Shown in pieces: positions 14,979 through 34,397 of a DNA stretch of 64,000 nt. The DNA comes from an uncultured Pseudomonadota bacterium. Lineage in GTDB: Bacteria; Oederibacteriota; Muellerivitia; Muellerivitales; Muellerivitaceae. Where the stretch lies: assembly GCA_963836235.1 (NCBI GenBank), contig CAWIIP010000004.1:889725-953724 (forward strand), in the 5' to 3' direction. Position 1 is the first letter of the stretch. Each line of letters starts with the position of its first letter. A program made the translations under genes and the position numbers. Under the pieces are notes generated by a model. That model ran no database searches and was not told the DNA's origin. It was given only the letters and a program-made list of their open reading frames with translations.

Positions 14979-15764
14979 ATGCCTAGTGGACTTTATATCG
15001 CGGCTTCGGGTATGGATTCAGCCTTGATGAGGCAAAATGTTATTGCGAACAATTTAGCAAATGTTCAAACGGTTGGGTTTAAACAAAATCGAGAAGTCGA
15101 TGTAGCTTTTCCGACTTATCTTATAGCTCGATTGCACGATCAGCGCATTAATGTACTGGATGGGACTGCTGAAATTAGGCCGAATATTGGTGTTATGGGT
15201 GGAGGAGTCATTCCTCAGGAAGTTGCAACGGACTATTCACAGGGTTCACACCTTGAAACCAAAAATCCTTTGGATTTTGCCTTGAATGGTCCTGGCTTTT
15301 TCTCGGTTTTAAATCCGGACGGGAAAACATTATTGACGAGGGATGGAAACTTTAGTTTGGACTCAAATGGTAGGCTTGTAACAAAAGATGGGTTGCCTGT
15401 TTTGGGTCATAATGGTGAGATTTACATCGATGGAAATGAGGTTACGGCGGACCAAGAGGGGAATATAACGGTTGATGGTAAGGCCCTTGACCAGCTGTTG
15501 ACGGTCAAGGTTCAAAACGTTGATCAACTTACAAAGGTCGGCCATTCTTTATTCAAGACAACTCCCAAAACTAAGGTAGACATGGCTCCTGATGGAATAC
15601 AAGTTCAACAAGGTTTTTTGGAACAATCGAACGTGAATTCCATTACAGAGATGGTAAATATGATCGATACTTATCGGTCATATGAACTAAACTCCAGAAT
15701 TATTTCGACTTTTGACCATCTTGGTGAAGAAGCTGCGACTGAAATTGGAACTTTGAGGGTTTAG
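14979..15764 (+). CDS. flgF: Flagellar basal-body rod protein FlgF (FlgF/FlhO-type)
   Basis: GLYIAASGM...IANNLANVQTVGFK, TRDGNF and LEQSNVNSITEMVNMI. Precedes flgG. Confidence 0.85.
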   Translation: MPSGLYIAASGMDSALMRQNVIANNLANVQTVGFKQNREVDVAFPTYLIARLHDQRINVLDGTAEIRPNIGVMGGGVIPQEVATDYSQGSHLETKNPLDFALNGPGFFSVLNPDGKTLLTRDGNFSLDSNGRLVTKDGLPVLGHNGEIYIDGNEVTADQEGNITVDGKALDQLLTVKVQNVDQLTKVGHSLFKTTPKTKVDMAPDGIQVQQGFLEQSNVNSITEMVNMIDTYRSYELNSRIISTFDHLGEEAATEIGTLRV

Positions 15765-15801
15765 TTTAAAATAAGATTTTGATCGTTGAATAAGTGAAGA
15801 A

Positions 15802-15859
15802 AACGGCCGGACTGCTATGCGGGGGCCGTTCCCGACGCCGAATGATTGAGGCGAAGGAA
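15802..15859 (+). ncRNA. Putative cis-regulatory structured leader upstream of flgG (motif shared with the flgE leader)
   Basis: AACGGCC-GGA-CTGC-TAT-GCGG-G-GGCCGTT hairpin, then CGCC-GAATGATTGA-GGCG hairpin. Confidence 0.6.
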
Positions 15860-15906
15860 CAACCGAAAGCTGGATTTTTTCGGCTTTCAAACCTGAGGAG
15901 GCTTTT

Positions 15907-16704
15907 ATGATGCAGTCACTTTATACGGCGGCAACGGGCATGTCTGCCCAGCAGTTGAATCTTGACACAATTTCCAATAACTTGGCAAACGTGAGCACCA
16001 CGGGGTTTAAAGCCCAACGGGTGGATTTCCAAGACTTGGTGTATAAGAATTTGAAGCCAGCCGGGACGCCTACCTCCCCTGAGACAAACACTCCAGACGG
16101 ACTTCAAATTGGTGAGGGTGTTATGCCAATTTCCACAGAGCGTATATTTACCGAGGGTGCAATTCAGAATACCAATAATCCTTTGGACATATTAATTCAG
16201 GGAAACAATGGTTTTTTCCAAGTTACCCTTCCAAATGGGGAAACGGCTTATACTCGGGACGGTTCTTTTACCCAGGATGGTAATGGAAATATTGTTACCG
16301 CTAATGGCTACTTTCTAAACCCCCCAATTCAACTTCCTGCAGAAACTAGCTCAATTCAAATTACTTCTACCGGGCAGGTCATGGTGCAAGCGGGAGGTTC
16401 AACGCAAGCTGTTCAAATCGGTCAATTGGAACTAACTAACTTTGTGAACCCCGGGGGACTTAGTGCGATTGGGAATAATCTTTTTCTGCAAACGCCCGCT
16501 TCGGGAGATCCTATTCAAGGAACTCCAGGTTCAATAGGATTTTCCGCTGTTCAACAAGGTTCTTTGGAAACTTCTAACGTGGATGTGGTGACCGAAATGG
16601 TAAACATGATTGTCGCTCAACGAGCGTATGAAATGAATTCTAAAGCGGTTTCAACGGCGGATACAATGTTGCTTGATCTTGCCGGAATGAAACAATTTCC
16701 CTGA
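15907..16704 (+). CDS. flgG: Distal rod protein FlgG
   Basis: SLYTAATGMSAQQ, FQDLVY, YTRDGSF and LETSNVDVVTEMVNMIVAQRAYEMNSK. Confidence 0.95.
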   Translation: MMQSLYTAATGMSAQQLNLDTISNNLANVSTTGFKAQRVDFQDLVYKNLKPAGTPTSPETNTPDGLQIGEGVMPISTERIFTEGAIQNTNNPLDILIQGNNGFFQVTLPNGETAYTRDGSFTQDGNGNIVTANGYFLNPPIQLPAETSSIQITSTGQVMVQAGGSTQAVQIGQLELTNFVNPGGLSAIGNNLFLQTPASGDPIQGTPGSIGFSAVQQGSLETSNVDVVTEMVNMIVAQRAYEMNSKAVSTADTMLLDLAGMKQFP

Positions 16705-16719
16705 TGATGAATTAGCGGC

Positions 16720-17697
16720 ATGAGACGATTTATATGGTTGACACTTTTGGCCTTCGTTACATTTCCGCTTTATGGGGAAGAAGGTCTTTTAACCATTCAC
16801 GTTTCGGAAAATGCGGCGGTTGTCGGGCCGGGGGTGTCGCTGGGAGAAGTTGCGAAGATTACTGGAAAAAATGAAGCGATGATTGAACGGGTTCGACGCT
16901 TGATTGTGAGTAAGGCGGCTCCTGCGGGGGAACGAATTAAGCTCAGTCAGGGTTACATTAGGGTTGTTTTGCGCCGTGAGGGTTTTTCTCTTGATGACTT
17001 TACTTTTTCGGGTTCGAATTCTACGGAGGTGTTAACTCAAAGCCAAGATTTTTTTCCGGAAGACCTACTTCCCCAAGCGAAGCTATTTATTTTGAAAGAA
17101 ATTAACGAAATCCCTGAAAATGTTGAAGTTCAGCTGGATGGAGTTAATAAAAAAATGCTTTTGCCGGCCGGGAAAATTACGGCGAACTTTCGACCATCAT
17201 TCTCCGGAAAGTATGAGGGAGAAGTTTTATTAACGACAGAATTGGACGTTGATGACCACTTGATAAAAGTATTACCTCTGCGTTTGACGGTGGAACTCAA
17301 TCGTCCGGCGGTGGTAACGACGAAAAGGATTGAAAAAGGGGAAAAATTCAACTCTGAAAATATTGCTTTGGTTCGTGAACCAAGTTCTAAGATAATGCAG
17401 GGGTGTTTTCAACAATTGAGTTATGTTTTGGGGCGAACGGCTTTAATGCCGTTGATTCCAGATACGGTCATCCGGGTTGATGAGATTTTTGATCCACCCG
17501 TTGTCCTTCGAGGCAAAATTATTCAAGCCATAGTTCGACTTGGGAATGTAGAACTTAGCGTGGATGCAAGGGCAATTGAAGATGGTAAAGCTGGGGACAT
17601 AATTCGAATTGAAAATTTGGATTCTCATAAGGTCCTTCGCGCTAAAGTTTTAGATGAAAAAACGGGTTTGATTCAAAACAACGAACCGAAGTATTAG
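16720..17697 (+). CDS. flgA: P-ring formation chaperone FlgA
   Basis: Signal peptide and a SAF-like C-terminus (ARAIEDGKAGDIIRIENLDSHKV). Lies between flgG and flgH. Confidence 0.88.
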   Translation: MRRFIWLTLLAFVTFPLYGEEGLLTIHVSENAAVVGPGVSLGEVAKITGKNEAMIERVRRLIVSKAAPAGERIKLSQGYIRVVLRREGFSLDDFTFSGSNSTEVLTQSQDFFPEDLLPQAKLFILKEINEIPENVEVQLDGVNKKMLLPAGKITANFRPSFSGKYEGEVLLTTELDVDDHLIKVLPLRLTVELNRPAVVTTKRIEKGEKFNSENIALVREPSSKIMQGCFQQLSYVLGRTALMPLIPDTVIRVDEIFDPPVVLRGKIIQAIVRLGNVELSVDARAIEDGKAGDIIRIENLDSHKVLRAKVLDEKTGLIQNNEPKY

Positions 17698-17711
17698 CGG
17701 GGGTTAAATAA

Positions 17712-18326
17712 ATGAAAATTTGTTTTTTGATTTTTATCGGATTTCTTGTTTTAGCGGTAGATCAAGGTTTGCTCGCCGATTCGCTTTATCCGGTTGAGGG
17801 TACGAATTCCATTTATACCGAGAAGAGAGCTCGCCGGGTTGGTGATGTGATTACTGTGATGATTGAAGAAAATACACAAGCTTCACAAGCAGCCGGCAGC
17901 CAATACAACAAAAATGCCAGTGTGGCATTGGGGGCGGGATCCGGTTTTTTGGGTGCGGGCTCGTATGCTGGGGGTGTACTTAATTCCCCCGCCCAGATAG
18001 GTGTTGGTGCCAGTTCCGCAGCTCAAGGACAAGGAACCTCAAGTCGGAGTACGACGGTTACGGGGGAAATGACGGCTAAAATTCTTTCAGTGCTCCCAAA
18101 TGGGAATTACCTTATCGACGGAAGCCGTTATGTTGAAGTTAACGATGAAAAGCAAACAATCGAAGTCACTGGTGAAATAAGGTCGGATGATATTTCAAAA
18201 GAAAACACAGTTTCTTCCCAACGAATAGCGAATGCAAAAATAAAATTTACCGGTACTGGCCCAGCGTCTGAGGTTGCAAAGCCCGGAATATTGACTCGTG
18301 TTTTAAGTTGGCTGGGGCTCTTTTAG
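17712..18326 (+). CDS. flgH: L-ring protein FlgH
   Basis: KRARRVGDVITVMIEE, VLPNGNYLIDG and DISKENTVSSQRIANAKI. Confidence 0.93.
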   Translation: MKICFLIFIGFLVLAVDQGLLADSLYPVEGTNSIYTEKRARRVGDVITVMIEENTQASQAAGSQYNKNASVALGAGSGFLGAGSYAGGVLNSPAQIGVGASSAAQGQGTSSRSTTVTGEMTAKILSVLPNGNYLIDGSRYVEVNDEKQTIEVTGEIRSDDISKENTVSSQRIANAKIKFTGTGPASEVAKPGILTRVLSWLGLF

Positions 18327-18343
18327 ATAGTCTGGAGGAAATT

Positions 18344-19453
18344 ATGGCGGCGAAGAAATTTAAAATTTTAATTATCGTTTTTCTTCTTGGAATCGGAACC
18401 GCACAGTCGGCTCAAGTTCGATTAAAAACCATTGCGACGGTGAAGGGAGTTCGTGAAAATCAGTTAATAGGTTATGGTTTGGTGGTGGGTCTTCAAAGAA
18501 CAGGTGATACACAGCGGGTTGTTTCTACTTTACAAAGCATCACCAACATGTTGATGAACTTTGGAATAAAAATTAGTTCTGACCAGATTAGGACTCAAAA
18601 TGTTGGTGCGGTTATGGTAACGGCCCAATTGGCACCGCTTTTAAAATCAGGAGATAAAATTGATGTTACGGTTTCTTCCATAGGTGATGCCAGAAGTCTT
18701 CAGGGAGGAACGTTGTTAATGACCCCACTTCAAGGTCCCGACGGACAGGTCTATGCCGTAGCTCAAGGACCGCTTGCCGTCGGTGGTTTTTCCGATAATA
18801 CGGGAGAGTTTCCGTTGATCCAGGTGAACCATACAACCGTTGGTCGGGTTCCCAATGGAGCCGCTGTGGAAAGAGAAGTCCCTTCTACATTCGTTGATAA
18901 CGATACTATCTCAATACTTTTAGATCGTCCGGATTTTGGTCAAGCATCTCTGGTCACACAAGCGCTCAACCAGCAATTTGGTGAACAGGTCGCGAAGGCG
19001 GTGGATGGAGGACAGGTGGATGTGAAAGTTCCCTTTAATTATCGTGATAATGTTGTTGACTTTATAGCCGCTGTCGAAGATGCGCCTGTTGCTACGGACT
19101 CTCCTGCCAATAGGGTTGTTGTCAATGAAAAAACTGGAACTGTAGTTCTTGGGCAGGATGTAAGAATTGACGCCGTGGCCATCGCCCATGGGAATCTCCG
19201 GCTAGTGATTAAAAAAACGACTGAAATTACCCATGATGCGGTTTTTGGCCACGATGAGCTTACCCATACAACGACTGTCAGTTCGGATGATACTGATAAA
19301 AAAGGTAATTTAGTGGTCTTGCCAGAAGGAGCAACTTTGATGGATGTGGTTGAAGCGGTCAACGCGGTAGGCGCCACTCCGCGGGACTTGATTTCAATTC
19401 TTCAAGCAGTCAAAGAAGAGGGCGCATTACACGCCGAATTGGATATTCTTTAA
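18344..19453 (+). CDS. flgI: P-ring protein FlgI (start at ATG 18344 after GGAGG)
   Basis: GVRENQLIGYGLVVGL, GDARSLQGGTLLMTPL and GATPRDLISILQA. Confidence 0.96.
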   Translation: MAAKKFKILIIVFLLGIGTAQSAQVRLKTIATVKGVRENQLIGYGLVVGLQRTGDTQRVVSTLQSITNMLMNFGIKISSDQIRTQNVGAVMVTAQLAPLLKSGDKIDVTVSSIGDARSLQGGTLLMTPLQGPDGQVYAVAQGPLAVGGFSDNTGEFPLIQVNHTTVGRVPNGAAVEREVPSTFVDNDTISILLDRPDFGQASLVTQALNQQFGEQVAKAVDGGQVDVKVPFNYRDNVVDFIAAVEDAPVATDSPANRVVVNEKTGTVVLGQDVRIDAVAIAHGNLRLVIKKTTEITHDAVFGHDELTHTTTVSSDDTDKKGNLVVLPEGATLMDVVEAVNAVGATPRDLISILQAVKEEGALHAELDIL

Positions 19454-19471
19454 GATTAAGGGGCTCGAACA

Positions 19472-19942
19472 GTGAATCTTCCAACCCAAGCCATTTCTTT
19501 TTTGCCATTTGGACTTTCTGATCCCTCAAAGACGCTTCCGATGGAGGCGATGCAAAAAGTCTTTTCCCTTCAACCGGATTTGGCTTCGAAAGCGGCCGAT
19601 CAGGTAATATTGGGGCAATCGGGTTTGTCGCATTTAACGAAAAACAGTTCAGCAGCGTCATTAAATCCATTGCACGGAGCACCAACCCACACGGATGACG
19701 AGATTCGGCAAGTATCTAAAAATTTCGAATCTATTTTTTTACAAATGGTTTTTAAAGAAATGAGAAAGTCGGTCCAAAAATCGAATTTATTAGGGAATTC
19801 ACAGGGAATGGAAATTTTCGAGAGTATGTACGATGAAGATTTAACCCAACAGCTTGCTTCCTCTAGAGGGGTTGGGTTGGGACAAATGATTTATCAAAGA
19901 CTGAAGGCTGTTACTGTACCCCATCAAAAAACATTTTCATGA
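19472..19942 (+). CDS. flgJ: FlgJ rod-binding domain protein (no muramidase domain)
   Basis: FESIFLQMVFKEMRKSV...GVGLGQMIYQRL. Follows flgI. Confidence 0.85.
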   Translation: MNLPTQAISFLPFGLSDPSKTLPMEAMQKVFSLQPDLASKAADQVILGQSGLSHLTKNSSAASLNPLHGAPTHTDDEIRQVSKNFESIFLQMVFKEMRKSVQKSNLLGNSQGMEIFESMYDEDLTQQLASSRGVGLGQMIYQRLKAVTVPHQKTFS

Positions 19943-20370
19943 GTTTGGCGAATTGTTCGCGTTGTGGAAAGGTTTTTTCGTTTCTCCCAGGCAGTAGGGA
20001 TGTTTGTCAGTCCTGTATCAAAGAAGAAGATGATAACTACTTAAAAATTTTTCACTTCCTTTCGACCCGCCCCAGCGCAACTGCTTCCGAAATTTCCCAA
20101 GCTACTGAAGTCGATATCAAAGAAATTTATCGCTATGTTCGCGAGAACCGCCTGCGATTAGTCAAAATCGATACTGGTTTATGTTGTGAAAGCTGTGGCA
20201 TCCCTATTTCCCAAGGAAAAATTTGTGACGAATGTCGTCAAAAGCTTTCGAACGAAATGAAAGGAGAAATTGACAAAATTAAACAATATAAATCAAAACA
20301 AACTCTCTCAAACAAGTCACCTAGGGATCCAAAATACTTGAAGGATAGGCGTCGAAAGGATAAAGGCTGA
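19939..20370 (+). CDS. Flagellar operon zinc-ribbon protein (YvyF/TIGR03826-like)
   Basis: LANCSRCGKVF..C..C, an HTH-like middle and a second CxxC..CxxC. Upstream of flgM. Confidence 0.8.
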   Translation: MSLANCSRCGKVFSFLPGSRDVCQSCIKEEDDNYLKIFHFLSTRPSATASEISQATEVDIKEIYRYVRENRLRLVKIDTGLCCESCGIPISQGKICDECRQKLSNEMKGEIDKIKQYKSKQTLSNKSPRDPKYLKDRRRKDKG

Positions 20371-20454
20371 TAAAATTGGGTTTTTTCTCGTTTTTGGCAA
20401 AAAAGGGCTTATACATAAGCTTTGGAGCTTTATTCCATTCCCATCAATTTGGCC

Positions 20455-20481
20455 TAAAGTTTTAACGGGTTAAACCGTTAG
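20455..20481 (+). promoter_or_regulatory. Sigma28-type promoter of flgM
   Basis: TAAA(GTTT)-N15-ACCGTTAG versus consensus TAAA-N15-GCCGATAA. Near-identical to the site at 26942. Confidence 0.75.
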
Positions 20482-20509
20482 GTTCTTTAGAAAAATAAAG
20501 GAGTTTGCC

Positions 20510-20800
20510 ATGCGTATCGATGGATTTCAGAATATTCCAGCTGTTCTTCAGTCTTTTAAGAATGACAAACAACTTAAATCAAATCTGGATAGTGAAACGA
20601 GCCCGTCTTCTTCTGTTTCTTTGAGTTCTTTCGCGGAAGTACTCCAGTCTTTGCAACGAGATTCGGCTCAAGCGGCCAAAACTAGAAGTGCGAGAGTGGA
20701 TCAACTAGCCCAGCAAGAACAAACTGGAAAACTTTCTGTTGATTTACAGAAATTGGCATCTAGTTTGGTTAGTTCACAAGTGATTGATACCAAAGGATGA
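20510..20800 (+). CDS. flgM: Anti-sigma28 factor FlgM
   Basis: MRIDG start, SVSLS and RSARVDQL...GKLSVD..KLASSL. Sits in yvyF-flgM-flgN-flgK order. Confidence 0.75.
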   Translation: MRIDGFQNIPAVLQSFKNDKQLKSNLDSETSPSSSVSLSSFAEVLQSLQRDSAQAAKTRSARVDQLAQQEQTGKLSVDLQKLASSLVSSQVIDTKG

Positions 20801-20803
20801 CAA

Positions 20804-21295
20804 ATGCTTGAGTTGATGCGTTCGTTAATCAGCTGTTTAAAAAAAGAGACAGAACATTATCGCAATCTTGCGATTTTAGCCGCCCAACAAAAAGATTTGT
20901 TAGTGGCCGGCAAGGCGGACTCTTGGAAAGAGAACTTTCGTCTCGAGGAAAAAGAAGTATTTGCTTTAAATCCCTTGGTTGGAGAACGAAATGAATTATT
21001 GTCCAAAATAGCTAAAGCCAACGGCTTGAAAACTATTGATTTGGAAGGTGTTCTGGAAAAATGTCCTATCGAAGCAGTTGAGGATTTTAAGACGGCCGTA
21101 ATTGAGCTGATTCAAGCAGCGAAACACACGGAAGAAATAAACAAAGGAAATGGAAAGCTTTTGAAAAATGCGCTTTCCAACGTCAATTTTACTTTAAAGA
21201 TTATAAAAAACGGCGGAAAGAAAAGATCCTTCTCTCCGGCTTTGAAATTGACATCGGAAGAAAACAGGCCGTCATTTGTTAATCGGGTGGTTTAA
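20804..21295 (+). CDS. flgN: Export chaperone FlgN
   Basis: Helical protein with EEINKGNGKLLKNAL motif. Lies between flgM and flgK. Confidence 0.8.
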   Translation: MLELMRSLISCLKKETEHYRNLAILAAQQKDLLVAGKADSWKENFRLEEKEVFALNPLVGERNELLSKIAKANGLKTIDLEGVLEKCPIEAVEDFKTAVIELIQAAKHTEEINKGNGKLLKNALSNVNFTLKIIKNGGKKRSFSPALKLTSEENRPSFVNRVV

Positions 21296-21304
21296 GGAGG
21301 AACT

Positions 21305-23662
21305 GTGATAAATTCTTTTTCGGGTTTTTATACCATAACTCAAGGCTTACAAGTCGAACAACTCCTTGAAAACATAACCGCTTCCAATTTGGCTAATACT
21401 TCCGTTGATTCCAATGGGTACTTGGTTGGCAGCCTTCAACAGGTCAATATTGGCTCCGGACCTTCCGATATTCTGTCGACTGCTAATGGAAATGTTGCGA
21501 TTTCGTCTGGGCCAAGCATCGAGTCTATTACCCAACTTCGCAGTTCCTTCTTGGATTCTCAGATTCTAAATGAAAGTTCTGTTTTGGGACAAACAGAAGT
21601 TTTGTCCAACACCCAAGGTTCCGGAATATTAAATCTCATCAACAATATCGTGAATGGCCCTTCTACTTTAAACGGTGCTTTGAATACTTTCGCGGCTTCT
21701 TGGGGGAATTTGGCGACAAATACTGGAACGAGAGCCGCAGTCGTTAACGCGGGCATCGCTTTCGCTCAGTTAGCCAACACTCAGTACGAACAGTTGAATA
21801 CCTTGCAGCAAAACAACAACGCGCAAATCAATAATTCTGTCTCTCAAATCAATCAAATCCTTCAGCAGCTGTCCGCTCTAAACCATGATCTTTTAAACTC
21901 ACAAGGTGCCGCAAACGTTAATAGTTTGTTGGATGCCCGGGATTATGCATTGGATAAGCTTTCGCGCTTGATTAACATCCAAACGAACATTGGAGTCGGA
22001 GGAACCGTGAGCGTTTATTTGGGTGGGAGTAGCGTAACCTTAGTGGATCCATCCGGAGCCGCGATTTTACAAACGAATGTTGAGAACCCAAATTATCCTG
22101 AATTGCTTGGCGTGACCATTCAAAATACGGAAGGCGGGTTTTACGATGCGGCGAGCGCTAATGGGACTGTAACTCCAGAGGATATGTCGCAATGGATTAC
22201 TGGTGGTAATCTCGGGGGAGAACTTCAAGGTCAAAAGGCGATTTTATCCGCTCAAGACCAAGTCGAACAAATCGCGACGTCGGTGATGAATATTACCAAT
22301 ACCTTACAGGAAGCCGGGTATGCGGGGGATGGCACAACGACCAATACGCCCTTTTTTAATGAAACGGGCCCGGCGGGTATTGGCATCAATGCCGCCACGC
22401 AAATGAGCGTCAACGCCGCATTGATTACAAATAATAATTTGGTGGCATCCTCCCTGGTCCCCAGCAGCGATCCAAACTACAGCTTGGTCAATCCTAACTT
22501 ATCAACACCTGGAATTTTGTATAGCGGGACCATAGCCGAGTATCTTTCGAACCTGCCCAATATTTTGGCTAATAACTTTGCCCAAAGTTATGATGGAATT
22601 GCCGGGGCTTACGTGAATCCGGCGCTGGCCCTTTCGACTCAGACTTTTGCCATTACTCCAACGAACGGTTCCTTTACCATTAATGGAAAAACAATTAATT
22701 ATTTTGTCAATAATGCGGCAGCCGTCGCGGCGGGGATGCCGACCGCCCCTTACACTATTGACGGCATTATTGAAGCCATAAATGCGGCTGATCCAAACAT
22801 ATATGCGGTTTATAACGCCTCTACAGAGGAGTTTTCTCTGGTATCAAATCAACCTATTTCTATTCAAAACCTAACCGGTAATTTTGTGGGAGGTTTATCC
22901 AACTGGAGCAATATTCAAAATGTCTTGACGAGTACTATTCAAATGAACAGTTCGAATATCCCTATTTATTCCCAGATTGACTATGGCTCTGTCGGGGGCG
23001 ATCCTGGAAACCCAATGAACGCAACGGTTCCCAGCGCTTTTTTTCCGAACACCGGACCTAACTCCCAGTCTTTCCAGATAGTTCCGTCCGCCAGTGGCAC
23101 TTTCACCCTTTATCCTCCCTATCCCAATGGAGTACAGGTTTCGTGGAATAATACAATGTCGTTATCACAAATTGCCACGGCCATTACCGCGGCTTCGGGC
23201 GGTGCCATTACCGCGAGTTTTGATACCAACACAGAGACTTTGACCCTGTTTGACTCTACGCCATTACCGATGAATATTGTCGATAACACGGGAAACTTCA
23301 CTTCCTTCACCGGGTTGAACGGGAATATCACGCTGGGAACTATGACATCCGCTTTATCGGGCCCATACAGTTCCATCGGTTCCGCTGTAGCGGGTCAGCA
23401 GGCATTAACCGACCAAGCCTCAAATTCTTTGACACAATTGCAAAACGCTCAGGACAATATCGCCGGAATCACCACCCCTGGGTCAGGTCTCGCGGGTGTT
23501 TCTACCGCCACTATTGAGCAGCAGGCAACCCAGGAAATGATTGCTTACAACGCATTGCTGATGGTGTTGCAGGTGATGGACAATATGTATTCTGATTTGG
23601 TGGGAATCATTGGTAGCTCGACGCCGAGTGGAAGTTTTCAAAATCAATCTACGCCGGTTTAA
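21305..23662 (+). CDS. flgK: Hook-associated protein FlgK (divergent, with inserted domains)
   Basis: ASNLAN, ITQLRSSFLDSQ, LLDARDYALDKLSRLINI and GGNLGG motifs. The C-terminal D0 helix is degenerate. Confidence 0.8.
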   Translation: MINSFSGFYTITQGLQVEQLLENITASNLANTSVDSNGYLVGSLQQVNIGSGPSDILSTANGNVAISSGPSIESITQLRSSFLDSQILNESSVLGQTEVLSNTQGSGILNLINNIVNGPSTLNGALNTFAASWGNLATNTGTRAAVVNAGIAFAQLANTQYEQLNTLQQNNNAQINNSVSQINQILQQLSALNHDLLNSQGAANVNSLLDARDYALDKLSRLINIQTNIGVGGTVSVYLGGSSVTLVDPSGAAILQTNVENPNYPELLGVTIQNTEGGFYDAASANGTVTPEDMSQWITGGNLGGELQGQKAILSAQDQVEQIATSVMNITNTLQEAGYAGDGTTTNTPFFNETGPAGIGINAATQMSVNAALITNNNLVASSLVPSSDPNYSLVNPNLSTPGILYSGTIAEYLSNLPNILANNFAQSYDGIAGAYVNPALALSTQTFAITPTNGSFTINGKTINYFVNNAAAVAAGMPTAPYTIDGIIEAINAADPNIYAVYNASTEEFSLVSNQPISIQNLTGNFVGGLSNWSNIQNVLTSTIQMNSSNIPIYSQIDYGSVGGDPGNPMNATVPSAFFPNTGPNSQSFQIVPSASGTFTLYPPYPNGVQVSWNNTMSLSQIATAITAASGGAITASFDTNTETLTLFDSTPLPMNIVDNTGNFTSFTGLNGNITLGTMTSALSGPYSSIGSAVAGQQALTDQASNSLTQLQNAQDNIAGITTPGSGLAGVSTATIEQQATQEMIAYNALLMVLQVMDNMYSDLVGIIGSSTPSGSFQNQSTPV

Positions 23663-23677
23663 GAAAAGGCTGGTTTT

Positions 23678-26600
23678 GTGAAAACAATTAATGCGCTTTT
23701 AAATTCATCGCTTTCGACGCCGACCGACTCAATCGGTCAGTCACAGAGCCAAAATCCGGTTTCCCCCAAGGGTTCGGGATCAAAGGGGAATAACTTTGGA
23801 AATGTTTTGGCCCAATTAACCGCTCAAAATACCGTAACTAACCAGAATTCTCCCGAAAGCCAGCAGTCCTCCGGAGCCACCACTTCAACTGGAAATGCGA
23901 CTAGCGCTACATTGGAGCCAACTGCGGTTTCCGCTTCGAATGCTCCTGGGGAAAATTCCCAAGTGTCCTTTAATTCTGTTTCTGAAACCACGGTGGCTAT
24001 TACAGAGTCGGTTAAAGCCGAAAATGTTAGCCAATTGGCTCAAGCGGAACAAGCCTTGGTTTCTTTGGCGACGGGGTTGGCCCAAATTATTCAAATGATT
24101 TCACAACTTCAACAATCGGAACCGCAACAAGCCCAAGCGGCTTTGGCTTCTTTAAGTAGTTTGAATTTGAGTCCATCCGATCTTCTGACAATTTTAAATA
24201 CCTTGCAATCTTTGGTTCAAAAGTTGCCAGCTGAGCAAAATCCGCTGCTCTTAACTTCGGACCAACAAGCCAATCTTTTAAACCAAATGTTCCAACAAAT
24301 GATGCAGGCCCAACAAATTTTACTTGGAGGGACCGCGGCCAATCTTGGGAACAATTCTAACCCGACAAACTCATCGGCCAATAATCCTGGTGTTGCTGGG
24401 GTGGGAACGATAGGTTCGAATTCTACCCAAAATATTTCGTTCCAAATGTTGTTTTCAAATACAAACTTGACTGAACTGGCTCCAAACAATGGTCAAGCCT
24501 CCCGGGTTTTTATAAATTTAGAAACCTTTAAAATGTCGGCGACTTTTATCCAAACTGGAACCAATTCAACACCGGGACAAAACCCTGGCCAAGGTCCCTT
24601 GAACGTCCAAGTTCAATCGGCCATTCCGGTTAATTCCCAAAGCGTGGTCAATGATTTAAATCAAGCATTGACGAATTTAGGCAATGCGACCTCATCGGCG
24701 GGTATTCCCGCGGTGGCGCAATCAAACGCGTCCGGCATCGCTAATTTACAAAATAATTTAAGTCAAAACTTTAAAGCGCTCGTTCAGCTCTTGATGCAAT
24801 CGGGTGTAACTCAGGCGGCACTGACCACGTTCCTGAATAACCAACAAAGAGGTACTGAGAATCAGAACTCTTTTAGCCCGTCTCAAACTGTTGGCCAAAC
24901 CGTTTCAGCTAATAACCTAACCCAGGTTTTACCGGTTTCGTCGGAGATTCAACCGGCCATTCCCGCGGCTTTAACGGCAGCTTCAACTAATAATTCCAAT
25001 GCGGCCCAAGGGACGCTTCCGGGCGAAAATAATTTGCTCGTGAATGAAATGGGTTCTCAACCGGTGATAACACCGGTTCAAACAACGGGTAAAGAAAACG
25101 CCAACAATCAACAAAGCTTGAGTGTTAGTAATACCACCCTGGCCTCAAATGAAGTGGTTCCTCAATTGGCGATACCACCGGTTCAAACAACGGGTAAAGG
25201 AGAAGCCAACAATCAACAAGGTTTGAACGTTGGCAATAATAACCTGACCTCAAATGAAATGGTTCCTCAAACGGCGATGCTACCGGTTCAAACGGCGGAT
25301 AATGGAGATTCAAAAATTCCAAATATGACTGAAAAACTCCAAGCGTTATCAAATCTTGCCCAATTGTCGCCTGTTCAAACGGCGGGTTCTGAAACCAGTT
25401 TTGGTTTAAATGCCAAAGAAATTAATACTTTAAACGCGGTTGTCGCAAGTCTTAATGTCTCTGCCTTACATTCCACGCAAGGAAGCGTGAGCATGGGAAC
25501 GAATACCGTTCTTCCCAGTTCCGCCTTGACGATGGGCCAAATATTAGGGGCTTCGGAGGCCAATCAAATTTCTTCGGGTTCCATCGTGGTTGCGAATGGT
25601 AATCCATCGGTTCCTTTGGTCCCGCCGATTCCTTTGCAAGCGCCTTTGCCAACCTCTAACGCAAACAATGTCATTCTTTCGCAATTAACCCAAAGCCAAT
25701 TGTCCCAACCGCAAACGACATCGCCGTCTACCACGGTTGGTGGCCAAACCGTTGCGGTTCTTTCCGGCGCTTCTCAAGAGCAGTTAAATCAAGTGGTTCC
25801 GCCTTTGGTTCCGACACCACAGGGCGCACTTTTAAATAATTTAACGTCGAATAATGGTGTTGTTACTTCCCCGATTGATTTTAATAACGGGACTTCGGCC
25901 GTTCCGGCTCCTATAAGCCCTTCTTTGGCCGTGGTAGGGAGCAATGTCCCTAATTCGTCAACCACAAATAATCCTGCTGGGATTAATCCTTTGCCTCGGC
26001 CAACCACTATTCCTAATTCGGGAACAATTCCATTGCCGGCTAATAACAGCCCTGCGCCCCCCCAACCTTTTGCTTTCACATCGCTTAACCAAACGGCTAA
26101 TCTGGCACCGACATCTCAAGCCCCGGTTGTTCCCGCTTTGGCTTCGGCTGGGGAAGCTATTAAAACTGAGATTCCAAATCAAGCGGTGGGGAACAATAAT
26201 AATGTCCAAACTGCTATTAACAATTCACAACCTGTTTCAACCATAAAATCGCTTTCGGCCGAGGCGGTTTCACCCGTTGTTTCAGTTACCCCAACCGACT
26301 CGACCTTGAAAACTTTAGATGTCTCTGGAAGTAACACGCCTAATAATTCGACCGTTTTGGTGGGGAATGCCTTATTGGGATCTGCCAACTTTGCCTCTGG
26401 TCAAACCCACGGTTCTTCCGCTTTTTCCCTTAGTTCTGGTATACCCTCAAACGTAGGGCCAACGGGGAGCATTGATAGCGCTCAAATCTTGAATCAAATA
26501 GCGCAACAAGTTGCGGCACAAACGGCGGACGCTAAAACTATTTCCCGATTGAACTTTCAATTTGTTCCCGAGAGTTTAGGCAAAGTGACGGTTCAAATTG

Positions 26601-26917
26601 CTTTAATTGACCAATCCGTTTCGGCCCGAATTATCGTCACCAATCCGGATATAAAAGAAGTTCTCCAGAGCCATATGGTGGATTTGAAAGCGGCACTGGG
26701 TCAGGCGGGCCTTCAAATAGACCAATTGCAGGTGCAGGTTCAAGGCGGCGGGGGCAATCTTTTAGCCCAATATTACCAATATCAGCAAGAAGGTTCTGGC
26801 TATCGTCTTCCGGCCGCTTTAAACACCGCAAATGTATCCGGGGTGCAAACAGCTGAAAATATGGGAAATTTGGAGCCTTTTTCAGTTCGGACGTCCTTGG
26901 TGAATGTCTTGGCTTGA
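23678..26917 (+). CDS. fliK: Hook-length control protein FliK (very long, 1079 aa)
   Basis: Low-complexity N/Q/S/T/P region and C-terminal T3S4 domain PESLGKVTVQI...LKAALGQAGLQI. Precedes flgD. Confidence 0.88.
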   Translation: MKTINALLNSSLSTPTDSIGQSQSQNPVSPKGSGSKGNNFGNVLAQLTAQNTVTNQNSPESQQSSGATTSTGNATSATLEPTAVSASNAPGENSQVSFNSVSETTVAITESVKAENVSQLAQAEQALVSLATGLAQIIQMISQLQQSEPQQAQAALASLSSLNLSPSDLLTILNTLQSLVQKLPAEQNPLLLTSDQQANLLNQMFQQMMQAQQILLGGTAANLGNNSNPTNSSANNPGVAGVGTIGSNSTQNISFQMLFSNTNLTELAPNNGQASRVFINLETFKMSATFIQTGTNSTPGQNPGQGPLNVQVQSAIPVNSQSVVNDLNQALTNLGNATSSAGIPAVAQSNASGIANLQNNLSQNFKALVQLLMQSGVTQAALTTFLNNQQRGTENQNSFSPSQTVGQTVSANNLTQVLPVSSEIQPAIPAALTAASTNNSNAAQGTLPGENNLLVNEMGSQPVITPVQTTGKENANNQQSLSVSNTTLASNEVVPQLAIPPVQTTGKGEANNQQGLNVGNNNLTSNEMVPQTAMLPVQTADNGDSKIPNMTEKLQALSNLAQLSPVQTAGSETSFGLNAKEINTLNAVVASLNVSALHSTQGSVSMGTNTVLPSSALTMGQILGASEANQISSGSIVVANGNPSVPLVPPIPLQAPLPTSNANNVILSQLTQSQLSQPQTTSPSTTVGGQTVAVLSGASQEQLNQVVPPLVPTPQGALLNNLTSNNGVVTSPIDFNNGTSAVPAPISPSLAVVGSNVPNSSTTNNPAGINPLPRPTTIPNSGTIPLPANNSPAPPQPFAFTSLNQTANLAPTSQAPVVPALASAGEAIKTEIPNQAVGNNNNVQTAINNSQPVSTIKSLSAEAVSPVVSVTPTDSTLKTLDVSGSNTPNNSTVLVGNALLGSANFASGQTHGSSAFSLSSGIPSNVGPTGSIDSAQILNQIAQQVAAQTADAKTISRLNFQFVPESLGKVTVQIALIDQSVSARIIVTNPDIKEVLQSHMVDLKAALGQAGLQIDQLQVQVQGGGGNLLAQYYQYQQEGSGYRLPAALNTANVSGVQTAENMGNLEPFSVRTSLVNVLA
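25043..25298 (+). repeat. 105-bp (35-aa) tandem repeat, ~2.4 copies, inside fliK
   Basis: Units start with AATGAA at 25043, 25148 and 25253. Protein unit NE(M/V)..Q....PVQT(T/A)G...NNQQ.L.V.N..L.S. Confidence 0.9.
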
Positions 26918-26941
26918 AGTATGATTTTATGAGGTTTGGGT

Positions 26942-26968
26942 TAAAGTTTTTGGCTTAAAAGCCGTTAG
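26942..26968 (+). promoter_or_regulatory. Sigma28-type promoter upstream of flgD
   Basis: TAAA(GTTT)-N15-GCCGTTAG. Confidence 0.75.
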
Positions 26969-26994
26969 AAATAACAGAAAGGGTGGTGATTTAA

Positions 26995-27438
26995 ATGGTT
27001 TCAGGAGTTGGAAGTAGCTCGAGTTCGAACGGTAGCAATGCTTTATCAAGTGCGTTGGCTACATCGACGGGTGGCAACCAGTTTGTGTCTCAGAATACGT
27101 TTTTGACGCTTCTGATAACACAGCTGAAAAACCAAGATCCGATGAATCCGCAGGACAGCAGCCAGTTTGTCGCCCAGTTGGCGCAGTTTTCGTCACTGGA
27201 GCAAATGACGCAGTTAAACTCAACATTTAGCAGCGTTTTGGACAATTCAGCGGCGGGCATGATCGGACAAACGGTGACGGTTGCGGATCCGACCACGAAA
27301 AGTGGGTTCACGACGGGCCAAGTGACGGGTGTTGTTTATTTCGCCAATGGTCCGGCAGTTCAGATAAATGGAGTGAACTATCCCTTGTCGGCTATTCAAA
27401 ACGTTGGGGCAGTTACGCCTAACGCACCGACGGGCTGA
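26995..27438 (+). CDS. flgD: Hook capping protein FlgD
   Basis: FLTLLITQLKNQDPMNPQDSSQFVAQLAQFSSLEQM. Confidence 0.96.
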   Translation: MVSGVGSSSSSNGSNALSSALATSTGGNQFVSQNTFLTLLITQLKNQDPMNPQDSSQFVAQLAQFSSLEQMTQLNSTFSSVLDNSAAGMIGQTVTVADPTTKSGFTTGQVTGVVYFANGPAVQINGVNYPLSAIQNVGAVTPNAPTG

Positions 27439-27490
27439 GTTTAGTGATTTGGCCTGGATTTCAGGCTTTTGAAAGGCGGGTGAAGACAAA

Positions 27491-27898
27491 GTGGTTCAGC
27501 AGATCAACTTTAATGATCCTCATAGTACGGTAGAAAACGTCCAGAATCAGGCCCAGTTGCAGATGATGCAGCAACAGGCCAGCCGGGCGGCTGAAACCGC
27601 ACAACCTTTTGACGCGTTTTTGCAATCAACGGTTGATAGGGGTCAGGGTTTAAAGTTTTCGGCTCACGCCAAAGAACGATTAAGTTTGAGAAACATCAAC
27701 CTTTCGGCTTCGGATTTGAGCCGCATGAATGACGCGGTCAATAAAGCGGCGGCTAAAGGGGCCAGGCAATCCCTGCTGGTGATGGAAAACCAGGCTTTTA
27801 TCGTTAGCGTGCCGAATAAAACCGTCATTACTGCGCTGGACAACAACAGCATGAAGGAAAATGTCTTTACCAATATCGATAGCGCGGTGATTGTTTAG
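27491..27898 (+). CDS. Flagellar operon protein TIGR02530 family
   Basis: LKFSAHAKERL..RNI...KGARQSLLVM...AFIVSVPNKTVITAL...ENVFTNIDSAVI. Lies between flgD and flgE. Confidence 0.92.
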   Translation: MVQQINFNDPHSTVENVQNQAQLQMMQQQASRAAETAQPFDAFLQSTVDRGQGLKFSAHAKERLSLRNINLSASDLSRMNDAVNKAAAKGARQSLLVMENQAFIVSVPNKTVITALDNNSMKENVFTNIDSAVIV

Positions 27899-27922
27899 CA
27901 GTAGGTTTTGTAGTAAGCAGTA

Positions 27923-27978
27923 TCGGGCTGGTCCTCTTAGAGGGAGCCCGAAAATCAGGCGGGTTGATTACCCGACCT
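27923..27978 (+). ncRNA. Putative cis-regulatory structured leader upstream of flgE (motif shared with the flgG leader)
   Basis: TCGGGCT-GGT-CCTC-TTA-GAGG-G-AGCCCGA hairpin, then AGG-CGGGT-TGATT-ACCCG-A-CCT hairpin. Confidence 0.6.
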
Positions 27979-28000
27979 AAAAACTCTAAGGAGGAAGACA

Positions 28001-29974
28001 ATGGGTCTTCGAGATATGTATAGCGCGATTTCCGGGCTTCAAGCCAACAGCACATGGCTTGATGTGATCGGAAATAATATTTCCAACACCAATACGGTTG
28101 CTTACAAGGCCAGCCGTGTTGAGTTTTCAGATCAGTTCAGCCAGACGCTTTATGGCGGCACGGGGGACAACCCGAGTTCCAATTTGGGCGGTGTGAATCC
28201 TGAGCAAGTCGGTTTGGGAACCCGTGTGGCTTCCATCCAGACGCTTTTCACGGAAGGAACACTCCAGAATACCGGGATTTCCACCGATATCGCCATCGTC
28301 GGAAACGGCTTTTTGGTTTCCAAGAGCGGTGACCAGTCTTTGCTGACTCGGGCTGGAAACCTGACATTCGATAGTAAAGGAAACCTTGTTGACCAGAATG
28401 GCGGGTTGATCCAAGGGTTTACCGCTACGACGGTTTACACGCAAAATACCATTGATACGGCGGCGGATTCGGGGACCAACAACCTGATCATTACCACTGC
28501 CAAATTGACCTTAAACAATACTGATCCATCGGCCGCGACGGACATCAATATTCCGGCGACTTTGACCGAACCCCCTCTTGCCACCACGATGGTGAATTTT
28601 TCTGGCAATTTGGACGCGTTTCAACAGGCCAATACCACCGGAGGTGTTTTGGATATCGGTGGAAACGGCGAACCGGCTGTTTTGCCACTGGGTATTGCGG
28701 GCGTCGCTTTGGGCGGTGCCGAACCCGTTGCTGCGTTCCAGATTATCAACAACCCCAATGGGGCTACGGGACAGGTTGTTCAACAGCTTGCGGACCCTAA
28801 TGAAGGCGCTGTTGGCCCTGGCGACCAAGCGGGCGTGCAAGGAAACACCAATTCTGCCAATTGGACAAATCCCATCGTCAGTGGGGCAGTCAGTTTGGCC
28901 ACTGTCCAAGGGGACGCCATTGCCAACCCTGGCACCCTCGCTTGGGACCAGCAACCACCCGTCACTCCGGCGAAACAGATATCGGAAACGGTTTATGACT
29001 CCAATGGGAACGCCCGGCAGATCACCATTAATTTTTATCAAGTGAATGATTTGGGAGTGACACCCAATATCAACAGCCCCACCGGCCCTAACCAGGTCGC
29101 TTACGCTTGGTACGCTTTCGACACAACGAATGGAGCGCCTGTTAATTCCACTACCCTTGTGGGTGGAACCGGAATCTTCGAGGGCGACACTTCTGGAGCT
29201 GGCCCCGTTGGAGCTCCCACTGGTTATGACCGGGGCGTCACCGGAGACGGATTTTGGGGCGACTTGGTTGTCTTCAATACGGATGGGTCCTTGCTTACAA
29301 CCGGCGGGGTTGAAAATACCGCGGCGGGGATTGGGTTTCAATCCATGCCTGATATTTACCTTGATCCTGAGAATATTGCGGGTGCGGTTCCTGGGGCGAA
29401 TGGTCTCGGAGCTCCTGCTTCGCCGCTTCCCATGCAAGGCGCCGAAATTACACAGGTACAATTGAATTTCGGTAACGCGGGGATTTTGGGCAAAGGGGAG
29501 CGCAACGGCATGTACAGCGACGCTGACGGGACTTATCAGGTTGTCAATGGGGTGAACACTTATGTGCCTAACTCCACAGCCTATGCCGCCAGCCAGAATG
29601 GATACGCTGAGGGTCAGTTACAAAGCGTCAACTTTGACGCTACGGGGACCATCAACGGAACCTTCTCAAACGGACAGGTTACGGCGCTCGGCCAAGTTAT
29701 TTTGGCCGAACCGAACAATCCGGACGGCTTGGCGAACGTCGGTAATAATTATTACCAAACTTCTCCAAACTCAGGCCCCATGTTCGTGGGAAATGCCGGC
29801 CAATTGGATTTGGGAACCGTCCAAGGTGGTACCTTGGAACTTTCCAACGTCGATTTGACCGTGGAATTATCCAACATGATTATCGCCCAACGCGGGTTTG
29901 ACGTGAACTCGCGGGTGATCTCGGTTGAGAATTCCAACCTGCAGATCCTGAGCCAATTGGGTCAGGGCGGCTGA
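28001..29974 (+). CDS. flgE: Flagellar hook protein FlgE (long form)
   Basis: MYSAISGL...DVIGNNISNTNTVAYK, TRAGNL, VYDSNG and LELSNVDLTVELSNMIIAQRGF. Confidence 0.96.
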   Translation: MGLRDMYSAISGLQANSTWLDVIGNNISNTNTVAYKASRVEFSDQFSQTLYGGTGDNPSSNLGGVNPEQVGLGTRVASIQTLFTEGTLQNTGISTDIAIVGNGFLVSKSGDQSLLTRAGNLTFDSKGNLVDQNGGLIQGFTATTVYTQNTIDTAADSGTNNLIITTAKLTLNNTDPSAATDINIPATLTEPPLATTMVNFSGNLDAFQQANTTGGVLDIGGNGEPAVLPLGIAGVALGGAEPVAAFQIINNPNGATGQVVQQLADPNEGAVGPGDQAGVQGNTNSANWTNPIVSGAVSLATVQGDAIANPGTLAWDQQPPVTPAKQISETVYDSNGNARQITINFYQVNDLGVTPNINSPTGPNQVAYAWYAFDTTNGAPVNSTTLVGGTGIFEGDTSGAGPVGAPTGYDRGVTGDGFWGDLVVFNTDGSLLTTGGVENTAAGIGFQSMPDIYLDPENIAGAVPGANGLGAPASPLPMQGAEITQVQLNFGNAGILGKGERNGMYSDADGTYQVVNGVNTYVPNSTAYAASQNGYAEGQLQSVNFDATGTINGTFSNGQVTALGQVILAEPNNPDGLANVGNNYYQTSPNSGPMFVGNAGQLDLGTVQGGTLELSNVDLTVELSNMIIAQRGFDVNSRVISVENSNLQILSQLGQGG

Positions 29975-30144: not shown

Positions 30145-31188
30145 TTGGAAAGACTTGAATTGAAAACTTACTATTTTGCTTTTTGCTTTTTTGTCCTTCT
30201 GGGATTGTCGATGGGTTGTACTAAATCACCGTCTTCCCCAGGTTCGGGTCAATGGGGCGAAGCCACGGCCCACGCGCCTTTTTCAGGCCGTTATGGTCTT
30301 TCGGGAACTGTTTTTAACGGCCTCATGTGGGTCGTGGGAGGGGCGGCGGGCAACGCGGATAATTCCGTGACCTATTACGATGCCGATATTTGGTCATCCA
30401 GTAATGGATCGGCCTGGACAGAAGCGACTAGCAGCGCGCCTTTCGGAGGCCGGTATGGCAGCCAAACACTTTCTTATAACGGGAAAATGTGGCTTATTGG
30501 TGGAAACAACAGCGGAACTTTGAAAAATGATGTTTGGAGCTCGCTGGATGGGGTCAATTGGACGCAGGTTTTGGCTTCAACGGGCAAGGGAACGGCAACC
30601 CAATTTAGCCCAAGGGAAGATTTTGGGGCTGTTGTTTTCAACAACGCCATGTGGGTTATTGGAGGCTGGGCTGGGGTGAGTAAAAATGATGTTTGGAGTT
30701 CGACGGATGGAATCAATTGGACTGAAGTAAATGCCAATGCTGCTTTTGCGGCGCGATGGGGGATGTCTACTTTGGTTTACAATAATACCCTATGGCTGAT
30801 TTCAGGGACTTCCGGTTCAAGTACCAATTTTCCCACTACGGCGGGTTATGGCGATGTTTGGTCCTCGCCCGATGGCAATGTTTGGACAAAAGTTAACAAC
30901 TTGGCTCCTTTTGGACTATCGTATTATCATCAAGTTGTTTCAAACGGCGGCCTGATGTGGCTTTCGGCGGGCTTCCTCTGGCCCACTTGGGGTCCGCAAA
31001 GTACCGTTTGGACTACGGGTGACGGCGTAACATGGTCCAATGTTTCTTCCCCCTTTCCGGCGCGATTTTATCACTTAAGTCTTTCCTACAATAACCAGGT
31101 ATGGGTTATCGCTGGTTGTAATAATCTATGCAATAGTACTTCCGGCTGCGCGATTACTTATTTAAACGATGTTTGGTACACCCGGTAA
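30145..31188 (+). CDS. Kelch-like beta-propeller lipoprotein
   Basis: Lipobox-like LSMGC and ~6 repeats of (AP)F..R.....V.N..MW..GG...DVWSS.DG..WT. Confidence 0.8.
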   Translation: MERLELKTYYFAFCFFVLLGLSMGCTKSPSSPGSGQWGEATAHAPFSGRYGLSGTVFNGLMWVVGGAAGNADNSVTYYDADIWSSSNGSAWTEATSSAPFGGRYGSQTLSYNGKMWLIGGNNSGTLKNDVWSSLDGVNWTQVLASTGKGTATQFSPREDFGAVVFNNAMWVIGGWAGVSKNDVWSSTDGINWTEVNANAAFAARWGMSTLVYNNTLWLISGTSGSSTNFPTTAGYGDVWSSPDGNVWTKVNNLAPFGLSYYHQVVSNGGLMWLSAGFLWPTWGPQSTVWTTGDGVTWSNVSSPFPARFYHLSLSYNNQVWVIAGCNNLCNSTSGCAITYLNDVWYTR

Positions 31189-34378: not shown

Positions 34379-34397
34379 ATTTATCTGGAAGAGTGCA

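Follow-up and report, generated by a model that had tools for sequence, protein, structure and literature searches.

Two sites in a flagellar operon of an uncultured bacterium (GTDB phylum Oederibacteriota, family Muellerivitaceae) are almost certainly copies of one conserved structured RNA element, which lies on the sense strand 5' of rod- and hook-type flagellar genes. The sites are in the leaders of flgG (distal rod protein) and flgE (hook protein), within a stretch of 64,000 nucleotides from contig CAWIIP010000004.1 of assembly GCA_963836235.1. We call this whole stretch the window; coordinates are those of the window, and both leaders are on its + strand. A preliminary description, made from the letters alone, had proposed a covarying two-hairpin motif common to the two leaders. 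Orthologous conservation, covariation and intermediate forms now support this core claim. Pfam and NCBIfam agree with its naming of the two genes, and the element does belong to a long flagellar operon, where it occupies the sense strand directly ahead of the two most abundant axial subunits. The remainder of that interpretation, a protein-bound or processed RNA that would co-regulate the two genes and tune stoichiometry, stays a hypothesis. As far as Rfam 15 and our literature searches go, the element is a new, undescribed family of cis-acting structured mRNA leader.

The first hairpin (HP1) has an outer stem of 5–7 pairs, a 5' bulge GGA, an inner stem of 4–5 pairs and a loop of 3–4 nucleotides; a single purine faces the bulge. 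In the flgG leader (the flgF–flgG spacer, 142 nucleotides, 15765–15906), HP1 spans 15802–15830 and consists of outer stem AACGGCC/GGCCGTT (15802–15808/15824–15830), GGA (15809–15811), inner stem CTGC/GCGG (15812–15815/15819–15822), loop TAT (15816–15818) and purine G (15823). In the flgE leader (102 nucleotides, 27899–28000), HP1 spans 27923–27951, with the corresponding parts TCGGGCT/AGCCCGA (27923–27929/27945–27951), GGT (27930–27932), CCTC/GAGG (27933–27936/27940–27943), TTA (27937–27939) and G (27944). Letters and coordinates of both copies are exactly those first reported. Minimum-free-energy folds of each piece reproduce the shared architecture, with the U of GGU in the flgE copy drawn as a U–G pair. 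GGA forms the bulge in nearly all relatives, and GGU is a minority form, seen in the window's flgE copy and in the relative L032.

The second hairpin (HP2), reported to follow five nucleotides after each HP1 and to carry TGATT in its loop, is present in both leaders (TGATT at 15843–15847 and 27965–27969). Its stem has 5–9 pairs and is free to vary in sequence. The flgG-type loop reads GAAYGAYNGA, with three nearly invariant GA steps, and is kept across phyla. In the window, the folded flgG copy (15832–15857) has core stem 15836–15839/15850–15853, the 10-nucleotide conserved loop GAATGATTGA at 15840–15849 and two outer pairs, 15832–15833/15856–15857. The flgE-type loop of the window's family is shorter, around YUGAUYR (HP2 at 27957–27978 in the fold of the window's copy), and flgE leaders of another family (L056, L060) bear the flgG-type loop. 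In the flgG leaders of the window's family, a third hairpin of variable sequence comes next, followed by a conserved Shine–Dalgarno (SD) region; in the fold of the window's leader this hairpin (P3, 15865–15888) has no U-run, and it varies in sequence and length among relatives. A ribosome-binding site follows both hairpin pairs, as had been stated: the SD is GAGGAGG at 15895–15901 for flgG (start 15907) and AAGGAGG at 27988–27994 for flgE (start 28001). In most copies the SD lies 13–60 nucleotides downstream of the element and is unsequestered in predicted folds.

Two smaller features of the leaders were observed. In the window's family, a conserved stretch about the flgG SD (CGAAUCUUGAGGAGGC, 15889–15903; also in L015–L016, L013 and L008) is similar to the loop of HP2 plus the 3' strand of that hairpin (CGAAUGAUUGAGGCG), and one factor might read both; no such likeness is apparent in other phyla. 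Directly 5' of HP1, the flgE leaders of the family repeatedly carry a short box, AAGCAGTA.

Covariation was assessed on several alignments; their sequences are related, so that counts of paired cells overstate the number of independent events. In the flgG type (22 sequences), 95.7% of cells are paired, versus 35–66% after sliding the partner column, and double changes occur in 11 of 18 pairs, including all eight HP2 pairs, each with compensatory changes. HP1 of both types together (41 sequences) is 94.8% paired with 9 of 11 pairs compensatory, which bears out the reported compensatory stem changes around a constant unpaired GG. Within the family, HP1 of the flgE type (12 sequences) is invariant, and three of five HP2 core pairs show compensatory changes. 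A cross-phylum set of 60 sequences is also 95.7% paired, in an alignment that was fitted to the model and is hence biased towards structure. The outer stem changes by lineage as whole pairs: ACGGCC/GGCCGU, CGGGCU/AGCCCG, CAAGCU/AGCUUG, AAGGCC/GGCCUU and GCCGCU/AGCGGC.

Searches used two covariance models, R1, built from flgG leaders only, and R2, an HP1-only model of both types; neither is a joint two-hairpin model of both. All R1 and R2 element matches are on the same strand as the genes, and G–U pairs are frequent at several positions, where the opposite strand would show A–C mismatches. This fits a sense-strand RNA rather than a DNA palindrome.

Taken alone, the window makes a weak case against chance. 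A loose descriptor of the HP1 shape matched the genome 201 times, so the bare shape is not rare, and HP1 followed by any next hairpin matched 325 times versus 130–155 in three genomes shuffled by mononucleotide; such descriptors proved too permissive and were rejected as evidence. Whole-leader folding z-scores were modest (−1.7 and −2.0), and R1 scored only 14.3 bits (E 0.057) on the flgE leader of the window, with HP2 misaligned. Because these window-only statistics are weak, the case for a real element rests on orthologous conservation, covariation and intermediate forms in other families, all of which are strong. At the scale of the whole 3.97-Mb genome, R1 found one site (74.1 bits, over 15801–15858) and R2 found two, the flgG copy at 42.5 bits and the flgE copy at 37.7 bits, both of them in the R2 training set. 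The next-best R2 match (22.8 bits) is inside a long open reading frame (ORF) that reads like a NuoN-type membrane subunit.

Orthologous loci gave a clearer signal. The flgG loci of 40 relatives yielded 29 flgF–flgG spacers, of which 24 contain HP1: all 20 from the window's family or order and four from other families. Among the spacers lacking HP1, four are short (32–45 nucleotides) and one has an HP2-like hairpin alone. HP1 was also found in 17 of 19 leaders in which flgE follows the PF12611 gene, the arrangement of the window, and in none of 11 other flgE-like loci, most of which are a second hook paralogue on other contigs. Two hook paralogues are present in most relatives, the second without the leader motif; in the genome studied here, a second full-length flgE-like gene (contig C2:491043–492938, 57% identity to the window's flgE) likewise lacks it. 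In another family, R1 matches flgE leaders with 32.9 and 38.8 bits; in one relative, it scores 49–57 bits on the copies at fliK and flgF and on an orphan copy. Since the flgG-only model matches those other leaders, the flgG and flgE types are homologous independently of the window's own pair.

Over 99 genomes of the host phylum, R2 found matches in 33, mostly two per genome about 12 kb apart; these larger scans used stricter filters, by which weak matches are lost. Matches occur in 24 of 30 genomes of the window's own family and in some genomes of six other families; in many flagellated families there are none. Four copies were found in one relative, whose genome is closed. They lie 5' of flgF (at the start of the rod operon), fliK and flgE, apart from an orphan; the flgF and orphan copies are followed by terminator-like hairpins with U-runs. 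Use of the element by flgE, fliK and flgF was seen in the host phylum only, that by fliK and flgF in this one relative. The orphan copy (L094:2345–2500, relative G029) has HP1, HP2, a third hairpin and a terminator-like hairpin with a U-run. It has no flagellar neighbour, the next ORF encodes 161 amino acids with no Pfam or NCBIfam match, and the copy looks, from its sequence, like a free-standing small RNA.

To follow the element into other phyla, we scanned one genome per species for the exact pattern of the flgG-type HP1 core with 3-nucleotide loops only. At least 119 stretches matched, and titles were available for 80 of the matches listed. ORFs were called 3' of 83 among the 119 matches listed: 44 encode FlgF/FlgG-family rod proteins and one FliK (Pfam). 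Most of the remaining matches listed look like chance hits inside coding regions of G+C-rich genomes. The rod-associated matches listed carry Bacillota labels (Fervidicola ferrireducens, Thermovorax subterraneus, Tepidanaerobacteraceae, Peptococcaceae, and metagenome-assembled genomes (MAGs) of Clostridia and Bacillota), Actinomycetota labels (uncultured Actinomycetes, Gaiellaceae) and the labels Candidatus Poribacteria and candidate division FCPU426. Because the FCPU426-labelled leaders resemble those of the window's relatives, we take FCPU426 as a label of the host phylum. No enterobacteria were among the matches listed.

The element lies between two rod genes in four of five annotated loci (L137, L155, L100, L101); in the fifth, Poribacteria L162, no gene was called directly 5' of it. 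The order in Fervidicola is mbl, flgF-like, element, flgG-like, rod-binding protein, fabZ. In the Bacillota-labelled records, HP1 begins 1–8 nucleotides past the flgF-like stop codon, and HP2 is separated from the SD by 13–60 bases, mostly A-rich and free of terminators. HP1 was matched once in four of five genomes from other phyla and, at threshold, not at all in the fifth. Judged by these matches, the common form is the flgF–flgG spacer element, a cross-phylum feature and not a local pairing of two paralogous leaders. The preliminary description had named a lack of homologues or covariation elsewhere as grounds for rejecting its proposal; the element instead stands ahead of rod genes under several phylum labels.

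In the records labelled Actinomycetes or Gaiellaceae (L100, L101, L110, L112, L116, L117, L123, L126, L127, L153, L158, L180), HP1 is almost letter-identical, the rod gene downstream encodes 238–239 amino acids, and HP2 is replaced by a GGGAG...CUCCC hairpin with a small internal stem. This form is, to go by its letters, a distinct subtype.

We compared the element with known RNA classes. Rfam 15 returned only tRNA on the whole window, only noise on both leaders at E up to 10 (best 15.7 bits), and nothing at the motif at gathering score on 18 motif-bearing loci of other phyla, in line with the earlier remark that the motif is not a named riboswitch. The c-di-GMP-I and c-di-GMP-II riboswitches (RF01051, RF01786) had no match in the window, both leaders or the 18 loci. 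Full-text literature searches turned up no account of a leader motif of rod genes. Neither did look-ups in four surveys of bacterial RNA motifs (PMC11109978, PMC8632094, PMC6429828, PMC5737381), whose supplementary tables, outside the search, might list it. In Table 2 of the 2007 CMfinder paper (PMC1950547), flgG is listed only among the genes downstream of GEMM, the c-di-GMP-I riboswitch. GEMM resembles our element as a conserved two-hairpin RNA ahead of flagellar genes that include flgG, but it has a different sequence signature, whereas our element has no Rfam match and precedes rod and hook genes only; GEMM is a different RNA.

The leaders controlled by CsrA, such as those of hag in Bacillus and flaA in Campylobacter (CsrA–FliW), are similar in that flagellar subunit mRNAs present a GGA in a hairpin close to the SD. 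A Campylobacter CsrA pull-down table also shows enrichment of flgE and flgG2 mRNAs (PMC4894983). CsrA was nevertheless rejected as the partner: a search for PF02599 gave nothing in this genome (99.4% complete), in any relative that bears the motif or, overall, in 38 of 40 relatives, while controls in E. coli, B. subtilis and T. maritima were positive. The GGA of our element is in an internal 3-nucleotide bulge rather than an apical loop, and it is GGU in the window's flgE copy; the SD regions contain GGA, as does any AGGAGG. Among the 41 genomes searched, CsrA was found in G036 and G037 only, and R2 finds no motif in either. An either-or pattern of CsrA and motif is possible, two cases being too few to count.

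Other candidates were examined in the leaders. Neither leader of the window has a G+C-rich hairpin with a U-run between element and gene that would act as a terminator or attenuator. The same is true of most cross-phylum copies, and such a structure is present in two of the four copies of the four-copy relative. The only terminator-like site on the + strand of either leader is a hairpin at 15882–15903 that contains the flgG SD, and the window as a whole has 21 such sites versus 23.1 expected. A dispersed repeat of the repetitive extragenic palindromic type was rejected, there being only two copies in 3.97 Mb. A kink-turn has a 3-nucleotide bulge directly followed by tandem sheared G–A pairs; here the GGA bulge is followed by C–G and U/C–G/A Watson–Crick or wobble pairs as read from the sequence, and this class was also rejected. 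A 22-codon ORF (15842–15910) starts at an AUG in the HP2 loop, and its UGA overlaps the flgG start (AUGA). It was rejected as a leader peptide or upstream ORF, is not conserved (about half of the relatives have ACG in place of the loop AUG) and is probably fortuitous. By eye, we found no convincing pairing of the HP2 loop with the flgG start region, the HP1 bulge or the 16S 3' end.

As for promoters, a sigma-70-like match at 15745–15772 is within scan noise (32 found versus 22.4 expected), and no sigma-28-like box was seen by eye in the window's two leaders. Elsewhere in the window, a promoter-like box TAAAGTTT-N11-ACCGTTAG lies at 20455–20481, about 30 nucleotides 5' of flgM (start 20510). 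A box of this form, TCAAGTTT-N11-G(C/T)CGTTAG, stands 5' of the flgE leader motif in L033, L035 and L036, about 25 nucleotides from HP1, and a CCGTTAG box is found ahead of the second hook paralogue in relatives. By comparison with the general sigma-28 consensus, we take these flgM-type boxes to be sigma-28-type.

The function that we favour, tentatively, is that of a binding site for a trans-acting factor setting the translation of rod and hook subunits; we infer the factor, the translational level and the direction of the control. The HP1 bulge and HP2 loop would form the recognition surface, and the factor would most likely be a protein tied to the state of flagellar export or assembly. Bound beside the ribosome-binding site, it would set FlgG and FlgE translation relative to that of the neighbouring low-copy genes, in a control akin to that of ribosomal-protein leaders governed by their own products. 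A gene-specific binder is favoured over a metabolite sensor because there are 1–4 copies per genome, nearly always beside flagellar genes; because unpaired nucleotides are invariant while the stems vary freely; because most copies lack an expression platform and have an SD that is accessible in predicted folds; and because the orphan copy of one relative looks free-standing.

Several observations weigh against such a binding site. No partner was found, and CsrA, the obvious reader of GGA, was not detected in this genome or in 38 of 40 relatives. With GGU in the window's flgE copy, an A in the bulge cannot be a strict requirement. In the four-copy relative, pairing is possible between the sequence flanking HP1 on its 5' side and the 5' strand of the terminator, as in an attenuator or riboswitch and unlike a simple operator of translation. 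Riboswitch aptamers, too, typically show conservation as strong as that seen here across four phylum labels. A YvyF-like zinc-ribbon protein is encoded in 61 of 99 genomes, including families without the motif, and tracks flagella rather than the motif; its distribution says nothing either way about a role as the specific partner. The window encodes a YvyF-like protein (TIGR03826) at 19939–20370, and in the Bacillota MAG locus L155 a YvyF-like gene is directly 3' of flgG, with a double zinc-ribbon match that is weak and below cut-off.

A more specific form of this proposal can be drawn from the genes concerned. The products of flgG, flgE, flgF and fliK are early substrates of flagellar export, and those of flgG and flgE are the high-copy products of their operons. 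Since the element-bearing genes encode early export substrates, feedback from the export or assembly state is an attractive idea, and we offer it as a proposal. The element would be the operator of an autogenous loop: when export stalls or switches to late substrates, a component of the export apparatus, a chaperone-like factor or the unsecreted subunits themselves could bind at the GG bulge and GA-rich loop, thereby stopping the translation of flgG and flgE and, in some lineages, also that of fliK and flgF. We regard this version as doubtful.

The best-surviving alternative to a factor-binding site, unlikely in our judgement, is a module of mRNA processing or stability. The long mRNA would be cut just 5' of HP1, or would start there from an internal promoter in some relatives, and HP1–HP2 would guard the flgG or flgE segment from 5'-end-dependent decay, so that high-copy subunits have more message. 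The element does lie between cistrons, invariably ahead of the subunit of which more is needed; in Salmonella, FlgG exceeds FlgF, and FlgE exceeds FlgD and FliK. The position of HP1 right after the flgF-like stop in Bacillota-labelled records fits such a module, as do the sigma-28-like box of L033, L035 and L036, which would put HP1 near a 5' end there, and the recurrence of AAGCAGTA just 5' of HP1 in the family's flgE leaders. Yet protection by a hairpin would not call for a constant bulge or loop sequence, and across phylum labels the stems drift here whereas GG(A) and the GA steps stay the same. RNase sets also differ between these phyla, which argues against one shared cleavage signal.

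That HP1 and HP2 dock as a small aptamer for a motility signal, for instance a cyclic dinucleotide, with the ligand altering translation or, in some lineages, termination, is in our judgement rather improbable. Such a riboswitch would explain the conservation of unpaired positions across FCPU426, Bacillota, Poribacteria and Actinomycetota labels, and in two of the four copies of the four-copy relative, a terminator-like hairpin follows and competes with a long-range pairing around the motif. There is also the precedent of c-di-GMP-I riboswitches 5' of flagellar genes including flgG, in the table cited above (PMC1950547). However, no Rfam riboswitch matches, most copies have no recognisable expression platform, and two simple hairpins without a multi-stem junction leave little room for a pocket. 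Moreover, the targets are almost solely structural genes of rod and hook, and no transporters, signalling enzymes or other kinds of target were seen among the matches listed, unlike the targets of second-messenger riboswitches.

Still less credible is a processive antitermination or other co-transcriptional element, in which the RNA would modify the polymerase to read through the long flagellar operon. Its nearest model is EAR (epsC RNA, RF01735), likewise a structured intercistronic RNA, from a long operon that encodes an extracellular structure, and the flgE leader has a faint similarity to it (14.6 bits, E 2.1). This value is far under the gathering score, which is 42, short operons can carry the element too (for instance the flgF–flgG–flgJ-like unit beside mbl and fabZ in Fervidicola), and terminator-like sites are not enriched downstream in the window. 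Finally, a chance likeness of two ordinary intergenic hairpins with no common function, suggested by the abundance of the bare shape and the low R1 score of the window's flgE leader, is refuted by the comparative data: orthologous conservation and covariation, only two strong R2 matches in the genome, intermediate forms that join both types, and rod- or hook-type genes as 45 of the 83 downstream ORFs among the matches listed.

Among known systems, the leaders of ribosomal-protein operons (L1, S8, S15, L20) would offer the closest parallel to a factor-binding site. They too are short structured mRNAs next to the ribosome-binding sites of specific cistrons inside operons, with unpaired bases kept and stems covarying, one or few copies per genome, and genes of one large assembly with a fixed stoichiometry. 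They differ in having known binders and RNA mimicry, whereas the present genes are flagellar, mimicry is not evident and the binder is only a candidate. Salmonella flgE is reportedly under post-transcriptional control, a likeness in that the output of hook protein would be adjusted after transcription by the state of assembly; we know of no conserved RNA motif defined there.

How the output of some forty flagellar genes is matched to unequal numbers of parts is understood mainly at transcription, and mainly in enterobacteria. A distal-rod leader RNA found under Bacillota, Actinomycetota, Poribacteria and FCPU426 labels, and copied to the hook gene in the host phylum, points to an old, undescribed step of post-transcriptional control. 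If true, a feedback operator would link secretion state to subunit synthesis at the RNA level in four or more phylum-level groups, as a flagellar equivalent of the autoregulation of ribosomal proteins. The element is sharply defined, at about 55 nucleotides, and its cultured, non-pathogenic carriers Fervidicola ferrireducens and Thermovorax subterraneus make it open to direct experiment. It would add a family to RNA databases and would improve the annotation of flagellar loci in uncultured phyla.

The window as a whole is a single long + strand flagellar cluster by Pfam and NCBIfam. Its first part runs fliR, flhB, flhA, flhF, flhG, fliA, FapA, flgF, flgG, flgA, flgH, flgI, and its second part flgJ-like, YvyF-like, flgM, flgN, flgK, fliK, flgD, TIGR02530, flgE, flbD. 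The genes next to the two elements are all on the + strand. The proximal rod gene flgF (14979–15764) has the domains Flg_bb_rod, LlgE_F_G_D1 and Flg_bbr_C and reaches 179.6 bits with TIGR02490 (cut-off 178.5), and flgG (15907–16704), also recognised by Pfam, scores 353.9 bits with TIGR02488 (cut-off 252.75). The second element is preceded by a gene for a small flagellar protein, TIGR02530/PF12611 (27491–27898; Pfam, NCBIfam), and followed by the in-operon copy of the hook gene flgE (28001–29974), identified by Pfam and by the NCBIfam FlgE and FlgEFG models.

Further genes of the cluster were observed in passing. A stand-alone FlhB C-terminal-domain protein, TIGR00789-like, is encoded at 10902–11204. 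FliK (23678–26917) is very long, at 1079 amino acids, with a C-terminal Flg_hook as its sole recognised domain. Within the cluster are also four PorV/PorQ-like outer-membrane beta-barrel proteins (11253–14964 and 33407–35441), one of them with an fn3 domain, and a Kelch-repeat protein at 30145–31188, between flgE and flbD; the barrels and the Kelch protein are unusual neighbours for flagellar genes.

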